Positions 3,970 through 18,664 of a stretch of 20,031 bases of DNA are shown in pieces; positions within the stretch are counted from its first letter, which is position 1, and every line of letters begins with the position of its first letter. The notes below the pieces were generated by a model, which was not told the origin of the DNA, did not search any database, and saw only the letters and a list, made by a program, of their open reading frames with translations. The position numbers were made by a program, and so were the translations under genes. Source of the stretch: a virus (taxonomy: Duplodnaviria; Heunggongvirae; Uroviricota; Caudoviricetes); IMG/VR virus record IMGVR_UViG_2541047753_000005. One strand, 5' to 3'.

Positions 3970-5030
3970 CCGTCCAGAAGAAGATATTTTCACTGGCTGG
4001 TATGTCGCCAAAATCCAGCAATATAACAGCAAAGTCTGGCATTAATACAGCAGATACAAGCAAAGTTTATCATTTTCTGGTGGTAGGAGCGGATGCCTTA
4101 ACTATGTCAGAAATTACGGTCGATAGTGTTAGCGTTGAGAAGGTCGGCGGCTGCGCCAGAGAATTTCTGGTCGTAGATGGCTTTCTCTGCTCGCGTAGTG
4201 ACTCCACAAAAACCTTCGTCCACACGCGCGACGTTAACGAAATGAGCGCGATGTATTGTGCATCTGGTGCTTCCAATAGTGAGTTTTCGGAGTCCATAAA
4301 AAAGAGCTTGCCGTTATGCGGCAACACGGTTTATGGTTATAAGGCACCTCATAAAACGGGTGCCGGGATTGGCGTCCTGGTAAATCGAATGGCGACATAT
4401 GACGCGCCGAGCGTCTTTTTTTATGTCGTAGGTCTGACTCACCCATTTTTTGGGCGTTGGTGTATAATCCAGCGCCTTTGTCAATCAATGGTGGCTCAGG
4501 CAGGGGCTTCTTCGGAAGCGCCGGTATCCATTCGAGCCGGTTACGCCAACCCTGTCTGGGCTACCACCAGCGAAATTGGCGTTTCCGGTGGTAGCGTTAC
4601 ATGCTATCGAATGGAGGCTGCCACATGCTGGCTACTACCCCTACCCAAAAACCGCAATTTATCTGGATTATCGCCGCAGTTCGCCGCGATTGCCCGACAA
4701 TTACCGCCAAAATTCATCATATTGCTGCCGAGTCTGAACGCGATGCTCGCCGTTCTCTGGTGCGCGATCACGTCTGCTTTTTTGCTGGTCGTATCCGCAT
4801 GGAGGTGGCACATGATTAAAACCTACGATGTGCATATGGATCCCCTCGAACGCACAAGCCAGATCATCACACTGACAGAAGTGATTAACGACATTCTGGT
4901 GAGCAACTCTCCCTCACGAGACGAAAGACTGAAGGCGTTACTCGCGATATTGGATCTCGCCGTTCGTGACGTTCATTTCCTGCTGGAAGGTGGCGAAATG
5001 CCAGGAAAAACGGGGGCAACCAATGAATAA
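3963..5030 (+). CDS. hypothetical protein; extent uncertain (may be a shorter 5' gene plus untranslated leader plus a separate 72-aa gene at 4813..5030)
   Basis: ATG at 3963 has GGAGG about 7 nt upstream and is coupled to the preceding gene, so a real gene starts here. A 355-codon open frame is very unlikely by chance at this base composition. However the central part is compositionally odd, contains an extended -10 (TGTATAAT, 4461-4468) and stable hairpins, and the in-frame ATG at 4813 has its own strong GGAGGTGG Shine-Dalgarno. Confidence 0.35.
4461..4468 (+). promoter_or_regulatory. candidate extended -10 promoter element (TGTATAAT) ahead of the small-gene/primase operon
   Basis: Perfect TGnTATAAT at 4461-4468 with no convincing -35; preceded by a short GC hairpin plus T7 run (4401-4422). 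Position is analogous to the early promoter driving the primase operon in P4-type elements. Confidence 0.35.
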
Positions 5031-10982: not shown

Positions 10983-11653
10983 TTACCCATATAGCTCATA
11001 AACATCTCAATCGTGCCGTATACGAAAAAGGCGGTGATGGTGGTGCCTCTAAAGCTCAGGCGAAGGCCCAGCAGCAGGCAATTGATTTGCAGCGCGAGCA
11101 GTGGAATACGGTGATGAATAATCTCAAGCCGTATGCAGAAGTCGGATTGCCTGCTTTACAACAACTACAAGGACTGATGACTCTGGAAGGGCAGAATAAA
11201 GCCGCGAATGATTTCTTTGGTTCTGGTTTATATAAAACACAGGCAGATCAGGCCCGTTATCAGAACCTTGTCTCAGCAGAAGCTACCGGGGGGCTTGGCT
11301 CAACAGCTACCAGTAACCAGTTATCTTCCATTGCGCCCATGCTTTATAACAATTGGCTTAGTGGGCAAATGCAAAATTATGGAAACCTGCTAAATGTCGG
11401 GATGAATGCGGCATCAGGGCAGGCAACAGCAGGGCAAAACTACGCCAATAATACCGGACAACTCTTGCAGGGGCTTGGCGCTATTCGTGCAGGTCAGGCG
11501 CAGCAGCCATCCAGTCTTGCGCGTGGTATTGGTGGGGCGGCATCAGGCGCTTTAGCGGGTGCGCAACTTGGTTCCGTTGTTCCGGGTATAGGTAATGTCG
11601 CCGGGGCTATTGGTGGTGGGCTTATTGGTCTTGTTGGGGGGCTTGGATTCTAA
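10976..11653 (+). CDS. putative podovirus ejection (DNA-transfer) protein, P22 gp7-like
   Basis: 225 aa (P22 gp7 is about 229 aa as I recall). Gln/Ala/Gly-rich low-complexity protein with a Gly-zipper hydrophobic C-terminus (GALAGAQLGSVVPGIGNVAGAIGGGLIGLVGGLGF). Start overlaps the upstream stop. Homology inferred from size, order and composition, not from a search. Confidence 0.5.
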   Translation: MLITHIAHKHLNRAVYEKGGDGGASKAQAKAQQQAIDLQREQWNTVMNNLKPYAEVGLPALQQLQGLMTLEGQNKAANDFFGSGLYKTQADQARYQNLVSAEATGGLGSTATSNQLSSIAPMLYNNWLSGQMQNYGNLLNVGMNAASGQATAGQNYANNTGQLLQGLGAIRAGQAQQPSSLARGIGGAASGALAGAQLGSVVPGIGNVAGAIGGGLIGLVGGLGF

Positions 11654-13074
11654 TGGCGACATGGCAACTTGGCGGGCTGCCTAGCATGGTACCGCAAAAT
11701 GATAATGCTCCTCGTTCTTCCGTTCCTCAGCCTGTGCAGTTTCAGCAGCAGCCAAACGTAGGTTTAATGGCGCTACAGGGGCTAAGAGGCGTTGCTGAGA
11801 TTAATCAGCAGGCACGTCAACAACAGCGTAAAGCAGAGTTTCAGAAAGCATATGCCGGGGCTTTTGAGTCTGGAGACAGAAACAAAATGCGCAGTCTTAT
11901 TTCTGAGTATCCAGAAGAATTTGAAAGCGTTCAGAAAGGGATGGGCTTTATTGATGACGACCAGAGAAATTCTATTGGTCATCTTGCGACTAGTGCTCAA
12001 ATCGCATCTTCGCTCGGAACTGGGGCATTTGGAAAATTCATAGCAGATAACGAAGATGAAATGCGTCGCTTGGGAATTTCTCCTGAGTCTGTTGCCGAAA
12101 TGCATGTTAATGATCCACAGGAATTCCAGCGGCTTGCTGGTAGTATGGCACTGTTTTCTCTCGGTCATGAGAAGTACTTCGATATCAAAGATCGAATGGA
12201 AGGTCGGGATATTGAGCGTGGCAAGTTGGCAGAGACAATCCGCAGCAATCAGGCTGGAGAGGCGCTTCAGGCGAGAGGGCAGGATATTAGCCGAGCAAAT
12301 GCGTTAACGTCAGCATATGCACCAACAGCCGCAATGCAGAATTACAATCAGTACGCGCAAATGTTAAAGGCGGATCCAGAGGGGGCAGCGGCATTTGCGG
12401 CAGCGGCTGGAATTAATACAAACGCCAAAAAATTAATGAGTGTTAGGGAAAACGATGATGGCACTGTCACAAAATACTACACAGACGGAAGTGAAGAGCA
12501 GGGAAAACTAAACCAGCCAATATCTGGAGATGGGTTTCGTCCAATAGCTTTGCCAACAGCCCAAAAGATCATGGAAAAGTCGCCAGAAGGGGCTAAAAAA
12601 GCTGCTGGATTTGCATACAGAGTTAGGGATGCTCTTGATTCAATGGATACACTGAAAGGCCAGCTTAGCCCACAGCGAGTGGCGATCATTAATAATGCTT
12701 TGGGTAATGGGACGCTGGCTAACTTAACGCTCAGCCCAACAGAGCAGCAATACGTTGTTAATGCTAATGACGCAATAATGGCAATACTCCGTCAGGAAAC
12801 AGGGGCAGCTATCGTACCTGCTGAAATGTCAAAATATTATCAAATGTATTTCCCTCAGCCTGGCGACTCCACAAAAACCATTGATACCAAGCGCCGGAAG
12901 ATGGAAAACCAGTTCAATTCGCTGAAAGCTGCTTCTGGTCGAGCTTATGATGCTTTGCGTGTTATTTCAGCAGTTGACAGAGGAACTTCTTCTTCGTCGC
13001 AGACATTGCCGCAATCTGAGCAGGTATCACAGCCAGCAGCCAGCAGTAATTTTTCTTCACTATGGGGTGATTAA
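11653..13074 (+). CDS. putative podovirus ejection (DNA-transfer) protein, P22 gp20-like
   Basis: 473 aa (P22 gp20 is about 471 aa as I recall); TAATG stop/start overlap with the preceding gene; Gln-rich N-terminus. Confidence 0.5.
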   Translation: MATWQLGGLPSMVPQNDNAPRSSVPQPVQFQQQPNVGLMALQGLRGVAEINQQARQQQRKAEFQKAYAGAFESGDRNKMRSLISEYPEEFESVQKGMGFIDDDQRNSIGHLATSAQIASSLGTGAFGKFIADNEDEMRRLGISPESVAEMHVNDPQEFQRLAGSMALFSLGHEKYFDIKDRMEGRDIERGKLAETIRSNQAGEALQARGQDISRANALTSAYAPTAAMQNYNQYAQMLKADPEGAAAFAAAAGINTNAKKLMSVRENDDGTVTKYYTDGSEEQGKLNQPISGDGFRPIALPTAQKIMEKSPEGAKKAAGFAYRVRDALDSMDTLKGQLSPQRVAIINNALGNGTLANLTLSPTEQQYVVNANDAIMAILRQETGAAIVPAEMSKYYQMYFPQPGDSTKTIDTKRRKMENQFNSLKAASGRAYDALRVISAVDRGTSSSSQTLPQSEQVSQPAASSNFSSLWGD

Positions 13075-15179
13075 TGGCTAAAGCATGGAAAGATGTTATC
13101 GCCTCTCCACAGTATCAGGCGTTAGCACCAGAACAAAAAGTGCAGGCTCAGGAGCAATACTTCAATGAAGTCGTGGCCCCGCAAGCCGGAGAAAGTGTAG
13201 AGCAGGCTAAGCAGGCTTTTTATGCTGCCTATCCACTACCATCTACGAATGAAATAGACCGCTCCCAATCAGCAACTCAAAATATTCAACATACATCATC
13301 TGATAATTCTCTTGCGTCAGGGTATGCAAAGTTAGCTACTCAGCAAAGAGAGGGGCTTGAGCGTTCAGCAGAACAGGGAGCCAGTCTTGGGACTGCGATG
13401 CGCGATGCTATAACAGGCGAAAGCCGAATGACTCCAGAGATGGAGAGACTGCAAAATGTCGCCTCTGCCCCAGAATTGAACTCACTAAGCATGGATGCCC
13501 TGAAGGCTGGATGGTCTCAACTTTTCGGCTCTGACGCGTCTCAGGAAAAGATTCTTCAGGGCATGGGGGCGACATTAAGGCAGGATGAGAAGGGGAATAC
13601 TATCGTTTCTCTGCCATCAGGTGATTATGCCCTGAACAAGCCGGGTTTATCACCGCAAGACCTGACTTCGTTTCTGGCTAATGCGCTGGCGTTTACACCA
13701 GCGGGCAGGGCTGGAACGGTGCTTGGTGCCATAGGAAAATCAGCAGCTACAGATTTAGCACTACAGGGAGCCACCAGCAAGGCTGGTGGAGAAGATATTG
13801 ATCCGTTACAAACGGTAATTTCTGCTGGCATTGGTGGTATTGGTAAGGGGCTGGAAAATACAGCGAGTGCGGTTTCGAGGGCTGTTCGTGGTGATATGTC
13901 GCCTGAAGCAAAGGCTGCTGTCGACTTTGCATCGGAAAGAAATCTGCCGTTAATGACCAGTGACATGCTGAAAGATAAAACCTTTATGCAGAGTCAGGCT
14001 CAGACATTAGGCAAAAGAGTTCCTTTTTTTGGAACCGGTAAGAATCGGCTGAATCAACAACAAGCACGAGAAAATTTAGTCAGAACATTTAGCGATGGTC
14101 TGGGTGGCATTTCTGATAAACAGCTTTATGAATCTGCGACTAAAGGGCAACAAAAATTCATTGAGGCAGCAGGAAAGCGATATAACCGCATAATTGACGC
14201 TATGGGGGATACCCCTGTCGATCTCTCAAACACGGTAAAAACTATCGACAATCAGATTGCCGTGTTAAGCCGCCCTGGCAAATCTCAGGATAGAGCCGCG
14301 GTAAAAGTCTTGCAGCAATTTAAAGACGATATCACCAGCGGACCAAATGACCTGCGTCTGGCGAGGGAAAACAGAACCGATCTTCGAAAGCGATTTATAG
14401 CGTCATCTGACACTGTTGATAAAGATACGCTCCAGAAAGCCAGCGATATTATCTACAAGGCATATACGGCGGATATGAAAAAAGCCGTAGCCAAAAATCT
14501 TGGAGCAGACGAAGCCATTAATATGGCAAGGGTTGATCGCTCATGGTCTAAATTCAATGACATGATGGGAAGAACGCGCGTTCAAAAGGCAATAGCCAGC
14601 GGCAAGGCCACGCCTGAGGATGTAACAAAACTCGTTTTTAGCCAAAGCCCATCAGAACGTTCTCAGCTTTACAGGCTTCTGGATGACAATGGTAGGCAAA
14701 ACGCACGAGCAGCTATAGTTCAGAATGCTGTAGATAAGGCGACTGATCCGTCTGGAAATATCAGTGTTGAGAAGTTTATTAATGCGTTACACCGGAACAG
14801 GAAGCAATCAGCAACTTTCTTTAAAGGCGTACATGGAAAGGAACTGGACGGCGTTATTAAATACCTCAACGATACAAGACACGCGGCAAAAGCGAACGTT
14901 CAAAACTTAAATGGTCAGCAGCTTTATGGATTGTTAGTTGGTGGTGGCATCATAAACGCAGCAGTATTGGCGGGGATGCTAAAAACGGCTGCGTTTGTTG
15001 TTCCTGCTGCTGGTGCCGTAGGCGGAGCAGCGAAGGCATACGAAAGCCCTGTTATACGAAATGCCTTGTTACGTCTGGCAAATACGCCAAAAGGTAGCAC
15101 AGCATATGACAGAGCGATCAGTACGGTCACACAATCGCTCACCAGAGTCGCACAGGCATCACAAAAAGAAGCTCAATAA
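13074..15179 (+). CDS. putative podovirus ejection (DNA-transfer) protein, P22 gp16-like
   Basis: 701 aa; TAATG overlap with the preceding gene; low-complexity Ala/Gln/Gly-rich protein with a hydrophobic Gly/Ala-rich segment near the C-terminus (LYGLLVGGGIINAAVLAGMLKTAAFVVPAAGAVGGAAKA). Third and largest gene of the block, as in P22. Confidence 0.5.
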   Translation: MAKAWKDVIASPQYQALAPEQKVQAQEQYFNEVVAPQAGESVEQAKQAFYAAYPLPSTNEIDRSQSATQNIQHTSSDNSLASGYAKLATQQREGLERSAEQGASLGTAMRDAITGESRMTPEMERLQNVASAPELNSLSMDALKAGWSQLFGSDASQEKILQGMGATLRQDEKGNTIVSLPSGDYALNKPGLSPQDLTSFLANALAFTPAGRAGTVLGAIGKSAATDLALQGATSKAGGEDIDPLQTVISAGIGGIGKGLENTASAVSRAVRGDMSPEAKAAVDFASERNLPLMTSDMLKDKTFMQSQAQTLGKRVPFFGTGKNRLNQQQARENLVRTFSDGLGGISDKQLYESATKGQQKFIEAAGKRYNRIIDAMGDTPVDLSNTVKTIDNQIAVLSRPGKSQDRAAVKVLQQFKDDITSGPNDLRLARENRTDLRKRFIASSDTVDKDTLQKASDIIYKAYTADMKKAVAKNLGADEAINMARVDRSWSKFNDMMGRTRVQKAIASGKATPEDVTKLVFSQSPSERSQLYRLLDDNGRQNARAAIVQNAVDKATDPSGNISVEKFINALHRNRKQSATFFKGVHGKELDGVIKYLNDTRHAAKANVQNLNGQQLYGLLVGGGIINAAVLAGMLKTAAFVVPAAGAVGGAAKAYESPVIRNALLRLANTPKGSTAYDRAISTVTQSLTRVAQASQKEAQ

Positions 15180-15197
15180 CTGGTTAGCCACGGATGG

Positions 15198-15674
15198 CTA
15201 ATTTTTGTTCTTTGCTCTCATCCACAGGTAAAGAAGGGCAAGAACAAGACAAAAAACAGAGAATAGATGACCTACCTCATATGGTGCGCCCAAAAAATTA
15301 GCTATTGATACGGGCAAAAAAGCTGAAGCGATCAAAATTGAAAGGCAAAAAATAAGCCCAGTAATATAGTTTATTAAATTCTTAAATGAGAAATGTTTTG
15401 CTTGATTTACGGTCTTAGCGAATGATCGCTTAACGACGGATAAAAGCAAATAGATGGCGACAGTTGCTAATGCCCCTTTCCACCAGTCTGGATATAGTTT
15501 TGCGACAATCAGACCAAGGAAAACCATGATGACAGCCTGAGCATTCACACCAACCCTCCCTTTAGCGTTGTTTAGAATGGCAATCATCATATATCCAAGA
15601 CATGGCATTTGGTACATAGCTTGGGTCGGGATTTCAAATCCGATCCCCGTTGATGGGGCCGTTACAGTGCGCAC
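15198..15674 (-). CDS. polytopic inner-membrane protein, candidate superinfection-exclusion protein (SieA-like by position)
   Basis: Convergent with the ejection operon and AT-rich. About four hydrophobic helices. The ORF-track start at 15674 is a GTG; an in-frame GTG preceded by GGGAGGG (protein then begins VNAQAVIMVF) is a more plausible start, so the 5' end is uncertain. P22 sieA occupies this position and orientation after gene 16. Confidence 0.5.
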   Translation of the reverse strand: MRTVTAPSTGIGFEIPTQAMYQMPCLGYMMIAILNNAKGRVGVNAQAVIMVFLGLIVAKLYPDWWKGALATVAIYLLLSVVKRSFAKTVNQAKHFSFKNLINYITGLIFCLSILIASAFLPVSIANFLGAPYEVGHLFSVFCLVLALLYLWMRAKNKN

Positions 15675-15766
15675 ATATCCGCTTTATGTGAAACAGGAAG
15701 ATTTTTCTGATATCACTGCCACAGCAAAACACCAATTTCGAGACAAGTACGCGTGCGAGGGGTATC

Positions 15767-15788
15767 AGTTGCAAAAAATTTTGCAACT
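15767..15788. promoter_or_regulatory. near-palindromic operator-like site
   Basis: AGTTGCAAAA-AA-TTTTGCAACT: 10-bp perfect inverted arms separated by 2 bp, in the gap between the membrane-protein gene and the second alpA gene. Confidence 0.4.
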
Positions 15789-16581
15789 ACGTCCGACCAG
15801 TATGCACACGATGGCGGGGGGATACCATAAAACTGTTCTCTACATGAGACAGAGTGGTGGTGATGTGTTGATTATCGGCGTATATGCGCACAGGACGCGC
15901 TATGACGATGTTTTATGCGGGTACACCAATCACATGTATCTGGTGTGATAAATCGCGTTACATGACCTCTCATGTTGTGCTGGTGGTTATCACGACGTTC
16001 TGAATCTGGCCTTTGCCTGGTATTTTGCGACAAGTACGCGCGCGTAGCATCGAAATAATCGGATGGCGTATGCTGCTGGTAATATGAAGACCGATAGCAT
16101 TAACCGAAAGGAGAAAGACTTCTCGATAACGGCAAGGGGGCTGAATTGCGAGGCGAGATTAAGCAACTGTCTTGAACGTAAAAATCATGGAGCAACATGA
16201 TGGTACGATTCATTCCATTCTTCGTTCTTTCTGAGCATTGCGTTCAGGCTTAGTCAAAATTAGTGTTGCGAGCGGACCTATTAGTAATTGTTGGTGCGAT
16301 GCGCCTGTTATGGATTGTTATGGTTGTGGCAGGCCTGATTAATATCCAGTATGACCACCAGCTATGAGAGGCCACCTCAGTGGTTCGCAGTTGCAGGTTT
16401 GCACTCAGGTTCGCAGGGTTTTGGCTACTTTCACGTGCGAACCTGCAGAATTGCAAAGGACAACTAAGTCCTCTGGCCAACTCCCGGTTTATGAGCGACA
16501 CAGTCCGCCTGGCGCATCGTTTTCGTCGAGTGCGCCCATCAGCTTGTCCATGGACTATCCACCACTCGATATTAAAGCTAA

Positions 16582-17899: not shown

Positions 17900-18664
17900 A
17901 TGACTACAACGGTATATGATCGTGTTAACGCCTTAGTAGCGACCGACTCTAGGTGGTCTGTTGATCTTAGCCCACATGGCTACGATGGTCATATCCTGTA
18001 TATTGACGACACCGGCTTCGGTAAGCTAGCTCCACGAAATGATTTTGTTATGCTTTTAGCCGGTGATGGTCTTTTGATTCAGTTATGGAAGCATTGGTGG
18101 CGAGGAGACCTATCTCAACAAGAACCACCAGTTGTTTTACCTACTGGTCAATCGGTAAATTTACATATTGTGAAAAAATCAACTAATGAAGTGATTTTTG
18201 ATAAAGGTCAAAAATTAGTTGTAAAAAATAACGAAACGGAAGAACTGTTCGCTGTCTTTACAGGCTCAGGATGCGGTGCTGCTGCGCAAAACTGGATGTA
18301 TAGCCATTGCGCAAGATCAGCAATTGAAGAATCTAAAAAGCTTGACCCATACACTGGCGGCACTGTACGTTTTTTAGACTTCAGGACTAACGCATCATTA
18401 GTAGAAGACTCTGTTTCAACCATTAGCGAAGTAAACGAAGCTCTATTGCAGAGGGGGCTGATTATGGATACCAAAAACCCACATTCACCACACGTTTCTA
18501 TCAGTGCACAAGAAGTTGCTGAAGTTCGTCAAATGCTGGTTAGTGGTTCAATTACCCCATGTGCACCAGTAGGCCAAAGAACCCAAGATTGGGATGACAA
18601 CTCCAAATTGCGTTTAGCAAATGCTATTCAGCGTATTCGTGAAGAAGAAGCACAAATGCGATAA
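17900..18664 (+). CDS. putative Ntn-hydrolase, HslV/proteasome-beta-like threonine peptidase with C-terminal extension
   Basis: 254 aa, AT-rich. N-terminus MTTTVYDRVNALVATDSRWS parallels HslV [20 protein letters not shown] (Thr directly after Met, conserved Asp); LFAVFTGSGCGAAAQNW parallels the HslV IAIGSGGPYAQAAARAL motif. No Shine-Dalgarno before the ATG. No HslU-like ATPase gene in the window. From remembered HslV sequence only. Confidence 0.5.
   Translation: MTTTVYDRVNALVATDSRWSVDLSPHGYDGHILYIDDTGFGKLAPRNDFVMLLAGDGLLIQLWKHWWRGDLSQQEPPVVLPTGQSVNLHIVKKSTNEVIFDKGQKLVVKNNETEELFAVFTGSGCGAAAQNWMYSHCARSAIEESKKLDPYTGGTVRFLDFRTNASLVEDSVSTISEVNEALLQRGLIMDTKNPHSPHVSISAQEVAEVRQMLVSGSITPCAPVGQRTQDWDDNSKLRLANAIQRIREEEAQMR

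Follow-up and report, generated by a model that had tools for sequence, protein, structure and literature searches.

A small four-helix protein gene in the sieA slot of an Escherichia coli island carrying P22-type ejection genes: a candidate for a new phage-exclusion protein

Directly behind a convergent gp16-type ejection protein gene, on the minus strand of the 20,031-nt stretch of viral DNA analysed here (the window), lies a small AT-rich gene that most likely encodes a protein of 116 aa with four hydrophobic helices, and that occupies the slot held by sieA in phage P22. Its product was placed outside the SieA family by every comparison that covered this family and, as sister elements carry a SieA relative or a Hex relative at this start codon, is a good candidate for a new phage-exclusion protein. 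The best explanation, which we hold tentatively and stop a little short of calling probable, is that of an inner-membrane exclusion protein analogous to SieA and expressed from the integrated element; this exclusion reading is drawn only from the position of the gene and from its allelic replacement. The features of the locus are collected in Table 1.

Table 1. Features of the window at and around the candidate gene (window coordinates).
Feature	Position	Strand	Remarks
gp16-type ejection (DNA transfer) protein gene	13074..15179	+	701 aa; PHROG 770 'DNA transfer protein', 3e-160; convergent with the candidate gene
Hairpin TTAGCCA-cgga-TGGCTAA followed by a T-run	15182..15203	+	terminator-like for the gp16 transcript; fills the spacer and overlaps the stop codon of the candidate gene
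Candidate gene, most likely coding sequence	15198..15548	-	116 aa; GTG start; TAG stop; four hydrophobic helices; predicted N-in/C-in; KLYP invariant
Leader and upstream region	15543..16053		common to islands with different cassettes, 94.5-99% identity (94.5% in L005)
Upstream part of the 158-codon frame	15549..15674	-	most likely untranslated leader, 126 nt
Shine-Dalgarno sequence GGGAGG	15555..15560	-	6 nt upstream of the GTG start; read from the sequence
Perfect 10+10 nt palindrome AGTTGCAAAA-aa-TTTTGCAACT	15767..15788		about 220 nt upstream of the start codon

Over the 1.2 kb compared, the window is 100% identical to a chromosomal island that lies between yicC and dinD in E. coli D8. The island carries in order an integrase, an AntA/AntB-type antirepressor, a TOPRIM/DUF927 primase, homologues of genes 14, 7, 20 and 16, the candidate gene on the opposite strand, and AlpA-type and PerC-type regulators. 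The P22-type genes match PHROGs 651, 598, 917 and 770, and the gp20-type gene was also recognized by Pfam Inj_translocase (1.6e-58). No capsid, portal, terminase or tailspike gene was found in the island, and a satellite is a plausible description of the element because it combines an integrase, a primase and ejection-protein genes with the lack of capsid and terminase genes. The literature search returned no description of islands or satellites with P22-type ejection-protein genes, a result which may reflect the coverage of the search and not the state of the field.

Other observations were made along the island. Three RNA families scored above the Rfam gathering threshold on the plus strand, namely int-alpA RNA (1269-1335, 60.6 bits), the Hfq-binding isrK RNA (4344-4421, 67.1 bits) and C4 antisense RNA (4484-4571, 79.5 bits); the last two lie inside the region annotated by PGAP as 'ash family protein', beside the AntA/AntB antirepressor gene, and from this arrangement of sequences the island may have an immunity module of the P1/P7 c4/ant type. 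Near the right end, positions 17900-18664 (+) encode a 254-aa hypothetical protein with a weak PHROG match to 'HslV family peptidase' (2.8e-13) and no match in PADLOC, Pfam or NCBIfam, which may be accessory cargo. In the sister island of strain D2 (L003, 1328-3441) the truncated primase is fused to part of an acyltransferase and there is no gp14, gp7 or gp20 gene, but gp16 and the slot behind it are intact; decayed islands therefore keep the gp16-slot end.

In the ORF listing of the window, the minus strand is open over 158 codons from 15198 to 15674. The original prediction had described a small AT-rich frame with about four helices on the opposite strand after a gp16-like gene and had considered its start codon ambiguous; the description was confirmed with a shortened coding sequence, starts giving 158, 129 and 116 aa having been compared. 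PGAP calls the second of these (15198-15587, ATG at 15585-15587). The most likely start codon is nevertheless the GTG at 15546-15548, because every distant homologue begins with MN.Q at that position, because a GGAGG-like Shine-Dalgarno sequence lies 5-7 nt upstream in most distant homologues, because homology with sister islands carrying other cassettes resumes at 15543-15545, because the SieA-like gene of strain 789 starts at the same GTG in the PGAP annotation, and because the upstream extension is absent from the homologues except the close E. coli copies. In L006, L007, L008 and L012 the GGAGG-like element stands at equal distance from the start. The 158-aa and 129-aa starts were rejected, since outside the close E. 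coli copies no homologue reaches that far and since identical upstream codons (MIAILNNAKGRVGV) also precede unrelated cassettes. Read from the upstream starts, the cassette of strain D2 would have an atypically long signal peptide, compared with a canonical one (MNQLKRLVVSGLLFASFGANA/E) when read from the GTG. With the start placed at this GTG, the 126 nt upstream are therefore leader and not coding sequence.

The length of the frame is by itself insufficient to establish a gene, as one to a few ORFs this long are expected by chance per 20 kb (a rough estimate from stop-codon frequency) and many spurious ORFs of comparable size stand in the ORF listing of the window. The gene is called real because it is conserved and under purifying selection. 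Homologue copies were returned by a word-index protein search only in E. coli, Edwardsiella and Yersinia, under the source name 'hypothetical protein' throughout, and four more members, distant ones of 115-120 aa at 36-38% identity, came from an exhaustive profile search of 1.84 billion representatives. Each of the seven diverged coding sequences has its frame, start and stop intact. Pairwise comparison of the window, L006 and L007, for which dS is unsaturated, gave dN/dS values of 0.38, 0.12 and 0.14; for most distant pairs dS is saturated and pN is about 0.4. As judged from these substitution patterns, the gene is under purifying selection and the ORF at 15198-15548 is a real gene. Its GC content (38.5% in the 116-codon core versus 47.5% in the window) together with purifying selection is as expected of an accessory gene expressed from an integrated element. 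A conserved frame that is unexpressed or non-functional is a highly improbable alternative: frameshifted or truncated copies do occur in some E. coli genomes (P0001, P0016-P0018) and the promoter scans found nothing convincing, but the conservation of the Shine-Dalgarno sequence, the range of dN/dS and the maintenance of frame, start and stop down to the most distant members, where dS is saturated, all speak against it.

Upstream of the gene, no promoter was detected by the standard scan, and the only candidate -10 element that a relaxed scan gave was a weak TATGAT at 15586-15591 with a poor -35. The promoter is presumably in the leader and upstream region that is shared with other islands. 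This region includes the fully complementary palindrome of Table 1, a possible operator, which is conserved in L003, L004 and L005. A plus-strand ORF of 126 codons (15568-15948), divergent from the candidate gene and annotated by PGAP in strain D2 but not in D8, is probably not a maintained gene and was rejected as the real gene of the region, on account of interrupting indels in L004 and L005 and of the lack of family matches. As a separate observation, a query covering 15100-16300 matched 2464 of 5426 complete E. coli genomes, compared with 545 for the leader 15549-16053, and some sequence at about 16054-16300 is therefore common to far more elements; one weak match fell under a RusA gene of another prophage (H105). 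Further upstream, overlapping inverted repeats with arms of 13-17 nt (76-100% complementary) were noted at 16382-16447, unannotated, ahead of the AlpA-type gene.

The slot occupied by the gene corresponds to that of sieA in P22, where gene 16 (11484-13313, plus strand) is followed by sieA (13336-13830, minus strand) after a spacer of 22 nt; in the window the orientation is the same, the spacer is 18 nt, and gp14-, gp7- and gp20-type genes lie upstream of gp16. A terminator scan found one site, compared with 1.9 expected in shuffled sequences, so that the hairpin between the two genes is not significant by itself. Homology with the sister islands continues on this side up to 15197-15199. For the occurrence of the slot elsewhere, IMG/VR was used instead of a survey of species-representative genomes with gp16 as query, in which an alignment of seven sequences was too divergent and an alignment of four sequences led to one locus. 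On all 26 related contigs examined, a gp16-type gene lies convergent to the homologue of the candidate gene at 18-24 nt, and it is always of one sequence type, 59-100% identical to that of the window; homologous gp16 genes carry the Pfam domain Phage_P22_gp16. Nine to ten of these contigs are primase islands like the window and at least eight are P22-like prophages (L007, L023, L026, L028-L032), recognized by coat, gp4 or gp10 genes (L007, L023, L026, L028-L030, L032) and/or by a tailspike gene (L031). The order gene 16, candidate gene, tailspike was found in each of the six prophage contigs that reach the tailspike (L007, L026, L029-L032), of which L007 is a complete P22-like prophage of Yersinia enterocolitica with a homologue 72-74% identical and the remaining five are E. 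coli-type IMG/VR prophages with homologues 86-88% identical. In the P22-like contigs L023 and L028, the homologue is also located beside gp16 and P22-type virion genes are present. The interval between gene 16 and the tailspike gene (gene 9) is the defined location of sieA in P22-like prophages (PMC10883804).

Between the islands and the P22-like prophages L023, L026 and L028-L032, gp16 and the candidate gene are 93-99% and 86-98% identical respectively, but gp20 and gp7 are only 45-59% identical. This end of the ejection cluster therefore moves as a mosaic module, and the identities point to a recent exchange of the module made of gp16 and the slot between phages and islands.

Comparison of the window with sister E. 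coli islands, which are about 98% identical to it on both flanks, showed that they differ only between 15198 and 15545, the boundary of the swapped segment falling at 15543-15545, beside the start codon. Three other cassettes were found there, each behind this leader and GTG. That of strain 789 (L004, 5390-6004) encodes a 204-aa four-helix protein of the SieA family, with 29% identity to P22 SieA (E 2e-7), 34% identity to HS1 SieA (E 3e-9) and a phrog_7745 match at 5e-4; it keeps the invariant NR..D and RYPxEA..K residues (the latter as RYPGEA) and, being at most 34% identical to types A and B, possibly represents a further SieA type. In these islands, a SieA-family gene replaces the candidate gene at the same start codon. 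The cassette of strain D2 (L003, 5608-6006) encodes a soluble protein with a canonical Sec-type signal peptide when read from the GTG, unrelated in sequence to the polytopic candidate. It matches phrog_2651 (434 Hex / Sf6 gp38) at 1.2e-22 and, along its full length, shares about 30% identity with Sf6 gp38 and with an ORF that lies downstream of the 434 repressor gene and overlaps its end (tblastn E 3e-13 to 4e-15 for this ORF). In Emek, a P22-like phage, the sieA slot also holds a homologue. The ORF next to the 434 repressor gene is Hex, named for the heterologous exclusion of P22 by imm434 Salmonella lysogens, and it was also reported to act on RecA-mediated repressor cleavage (PMC3564112). 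Like the candidate gene as we read it, Hex is a prophage-expressed accessory gene, and it is linked to P22 exclusion.

The cassette of strain MS14385 (L005, 5707-6064) encodes a second four-helix protein, of 117 aa, which shares with the candidate the slot, the leader, a similar length and the helix count. Homology between the two proteins is confined to helices 1-2, with LGLIVAKLYP in the shared part (hhalign 94.8% over 40 residues), and the C-terminal two thirds are unalignable; it gave no match in 50,697 phage genomes or in PHROGs, and, from its sequence, it could be mosaic or else very distantly related to the candidate. An envelope protein is predicted for each of the four alleles. Of 5426 complete E. 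coli genomes, about 227 have the candidate gene, 125 the Hex-like cassette, 102 the SieA-like cassette and 87 the second four-helix cassette; the total of 541 is close to the 545 genomes with the shared leader 15549-16053, a match that is approximate as the 227 include some leaderless prophage copies. The slot accommodates genes for envelope proteins, read in the opposite direction to the virion genes.

This allelic series bears on the possibility that the gene is a functional partner of the adjoining gp16, a co-inherited module in which its product would protect the producer from membrane-active ejection proteins or help to handle them. The constant neighbourhood of a single gp16 type and the high identity of this pair of genes between islands and prophages whose gp20 and gp7 have diverged agree with such a partnership. 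The gene is nonetheless convergent to gp16, and hence not in the late operon with it; islands with about 98% identical DNA in the gp16 region carry SieA-like or Hex-like cassettes, and this gp16 accordingly does not need the candidate protein; moreover, none of the 50,697 deposited phage genomes has a member of the family. A partnership with gp16 is for these reasons considered quite improbable.

Given the SieA relative in the sister islands, the P22 coordinates and the six prophages that reach the tailspike, the position and orientation of sieA that the original prediction had assigned to the gene are borne out; the kinship with SieA that it had implied is not, and the alignment with P22 SieA that it proposed as a check revealed no similarity to SieA-family proteins. 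BLASTP of the candidate against P22 SieA gave an E value of 0.92, and hhalign of its family returned a probability of 0.6% against an alignment of 11 SieA sequences and of 0.08% against HS1 SieA (type B). None of five family members matched PHROG 7745, compared with control values of 9e-109 for P22 SieA and 5e-4 for the strain 789 cassette. The Pfam library searched was without PF26849, leaving the P22 SieA control unmatched, and the Pfam negative consequently carries no weight for SieA. The conserved cytoplasmic C-terminal motif of SieA is FxRYPxEAxxFNK (PMC10883804), in which R147, Y148, P149, E151, A152 and K157 are invariant in the SieA alignment; it was not found in the candidate, whose C-terminus reads ...LLYLWMRAKNKN, and RYPxEA occurs nowhere in the family alignment. 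Membership of the SieA family (PHROG 7745 / PF26849) was therefore rejected on BLASTP, hhalign, PHROGs and the absence of the motif and of the SieA loop described below.

Other known families gave no better result. Neither the window protein nor its four distant homologues matched phrog_2651, compared with 1.2e-22 for the strain D2 cassette, and no known exclusion or defence family was matched in PHROGs, PADLOC, Pfam or NCBIfam. For PADLOC-DB 2.0 (no family at E up to 0.1), P22 SieA was also unmatched, this database thus not covering the class. The candidate gene itself had no match in 50,697 deposited phage genomes by nucleotide search and tblastn, and the family was not described in the papers found by literature search; it is nameless in the libraries and sources searched.

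The 116-aa protein has four hydrophobic segments by hydropathy, and AlphaFold models them as four helices (3-18, 23-49, 55-85 and 90-115) with low confidence (pLDDT 57 and 66 in two runs); a Foldseek search of viral structures with this low-confidence model returned nothing below E = 1.7. Since basic residues are concentrated in KRSFAKTVNQAKHFSFK, which links helix 2 to helix 3, and in the RAKNKN tail, a topology with both ends in the cytoplasm and two very short periplasmic loops is predicted by the positive-inside rule, and an inner-membrane location is inferred. The short N-terminus, the loop KRSFAKTVNQAKHFSFK and the tail would then be cytoplasmic, and the two loops YPDWWK and GAPYEVGH periplasmic. 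Invariant positions of the family alignment include P79, G64-L65 and F67 of helix 3 and, where helix 1 ends, K17-L18-Y19-P20.

In its general plan, the candidate resembles SieA of P22 (type A) and HS1 (type B): both are products of AT-rich accessory genes and small polytopic membrane proteins (in the case of the candidate by prediction), encoded with the same orientation in the same slot, some 20 nt behind gene 16 and, in P22-like prophages, bounded on the other side by gene 9. The proteins differ in size (164-212 aa for SieA, compared with 116 aa) and in architecture, since SieA has three (type A) or four (types B and C) transmembrane helices and a long hydrophilic loop before the last two, a soluble stretch of about 50 residues after the first helices that the candidate is without. 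The four hydrophobic helices of the candidate, a number as in type B, are joined by loops of only 4-17 residues according to hydropathy and to the low-confidence AlphaFold model. The candidate is also without FxRYPxEAxxFNK, and has an invariant motif of its own, KLYP at the end of helix 1.

With its 116 aa, four hydrophobic helices and basic C-terminal tail, the protein also resembles holins and small transporters of the GtrA or SMR type. A lysis or transport function of this kind is nevertheless very doubtful, as no GtrA, SMR or holin family was matched in Pfam, PHROGs or NCBIfam at E up to 1, no endolysin and no gtrB or gtrC gene is present in the neighbourhood, and position and orientation fit a gene expressed from the integrated element.

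HS1 and P22 SieA were shown experimentally to block the injection of P22-like DNA (PMC10883804). By analogy, the candidate gene would be expressed from the integrated element in the direction opposite to the virion-gene operon, using signals shared with the alternative cassettes; its product would prevent the gp7/gp20/gp16 conduit of incoming P22-like particles from completing DNA delivery at the inner membrane, the role of SieA then being performed by an unrelated protein. Exclusion is favoured because two of the three alternative cassettes belong to families with a shown P22-exclusion phenotype and because the gene occupies the sieA slot in real P22-like prophages. The sharing of a slot with exclusion genes is no proof of shared function, as such slots can hold unrelated cargo, and for a satellite, if the element is one, excluding P22-like phages could mean the loss of a helper.

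Small inner-membrane proteins that block the entry of phage DNA at the cytoplasmic membrane include T4 Imm and HK97 gp15, the latter being a prophage-expressed accessory gene product. HK97 gp15 acts on the tape-measure/PtsG route and T4 Imm on T-even injection. The candidate differs from both in genomic context and in the delivery machinery that would be targeted, and the PHROG families containing these proteins were unmatched.

A different role for an accessory membrane protein expressed from the integrated element, such as abortive infection by membrane depolarisation, exclusion of phages other than P22-like ones, or a function in host fitness or in the envelope, is somewhat unlikely, yet far from negligible. 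Such a role would suit an AT-rich gene without detected homology to exclusion proteins, in a slot that holds four unrelated proteins, and Hex-type proteins too have been assigned a non-exclusion activity (PMC3564112). The strict linkage to gp16 in every context, the demonstrated P22-exclusion phenotype in the families of two of the three alternative alleles, and the lack of any PADLOC match argue against it. The exclusion reading may also be extended, in a form that we consider distinctly unlikely, to a new, SieA-unrelated family of exclusion proteins of the inner membrane that stop ejection-protein-mediated DNA delivery by another contact, with the slot serving as a plug-in site in which envelope proteins, unrelated to one another and at least four in number, are exchanged at a fixed start codon; its cassette may then be paired by the island with its own gp16 and gp20, so that particles of its own or of a chosen helper pass a block that holds up competitors.

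Leavitt et al. found it hard to explain how SieA proteins less than 30% identical block very divergent gp16/gp20 conduits (PMC10883804). At the locus described here, four cassettes that share one start codon and adjoin nearly identical gp16 genes form a natural series. If its four-helix proteins exclude P22-like phages, unrelated small proteins can achieve inner-membrane exclusion, which would point to the occlusion of a common feature of the host or of the conduit and not to specific recognition; if the protein has no effect on infection, the gene is an ordinary accessory gene of unassigned role. Small prophage-encoded membrane proteins that block DNA entry are already known, and what confirmation would add is an unrelated family doing the work of SieA. 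The real frequency of exclusion genes in P22-like prophages and islands would in that case be much above the estimates from homology searches, and, carried by about 227 of 5426 complete E. coli genomes, the gene could have consequences for phage typing, for transduction and for phage therapy with podoviruses.
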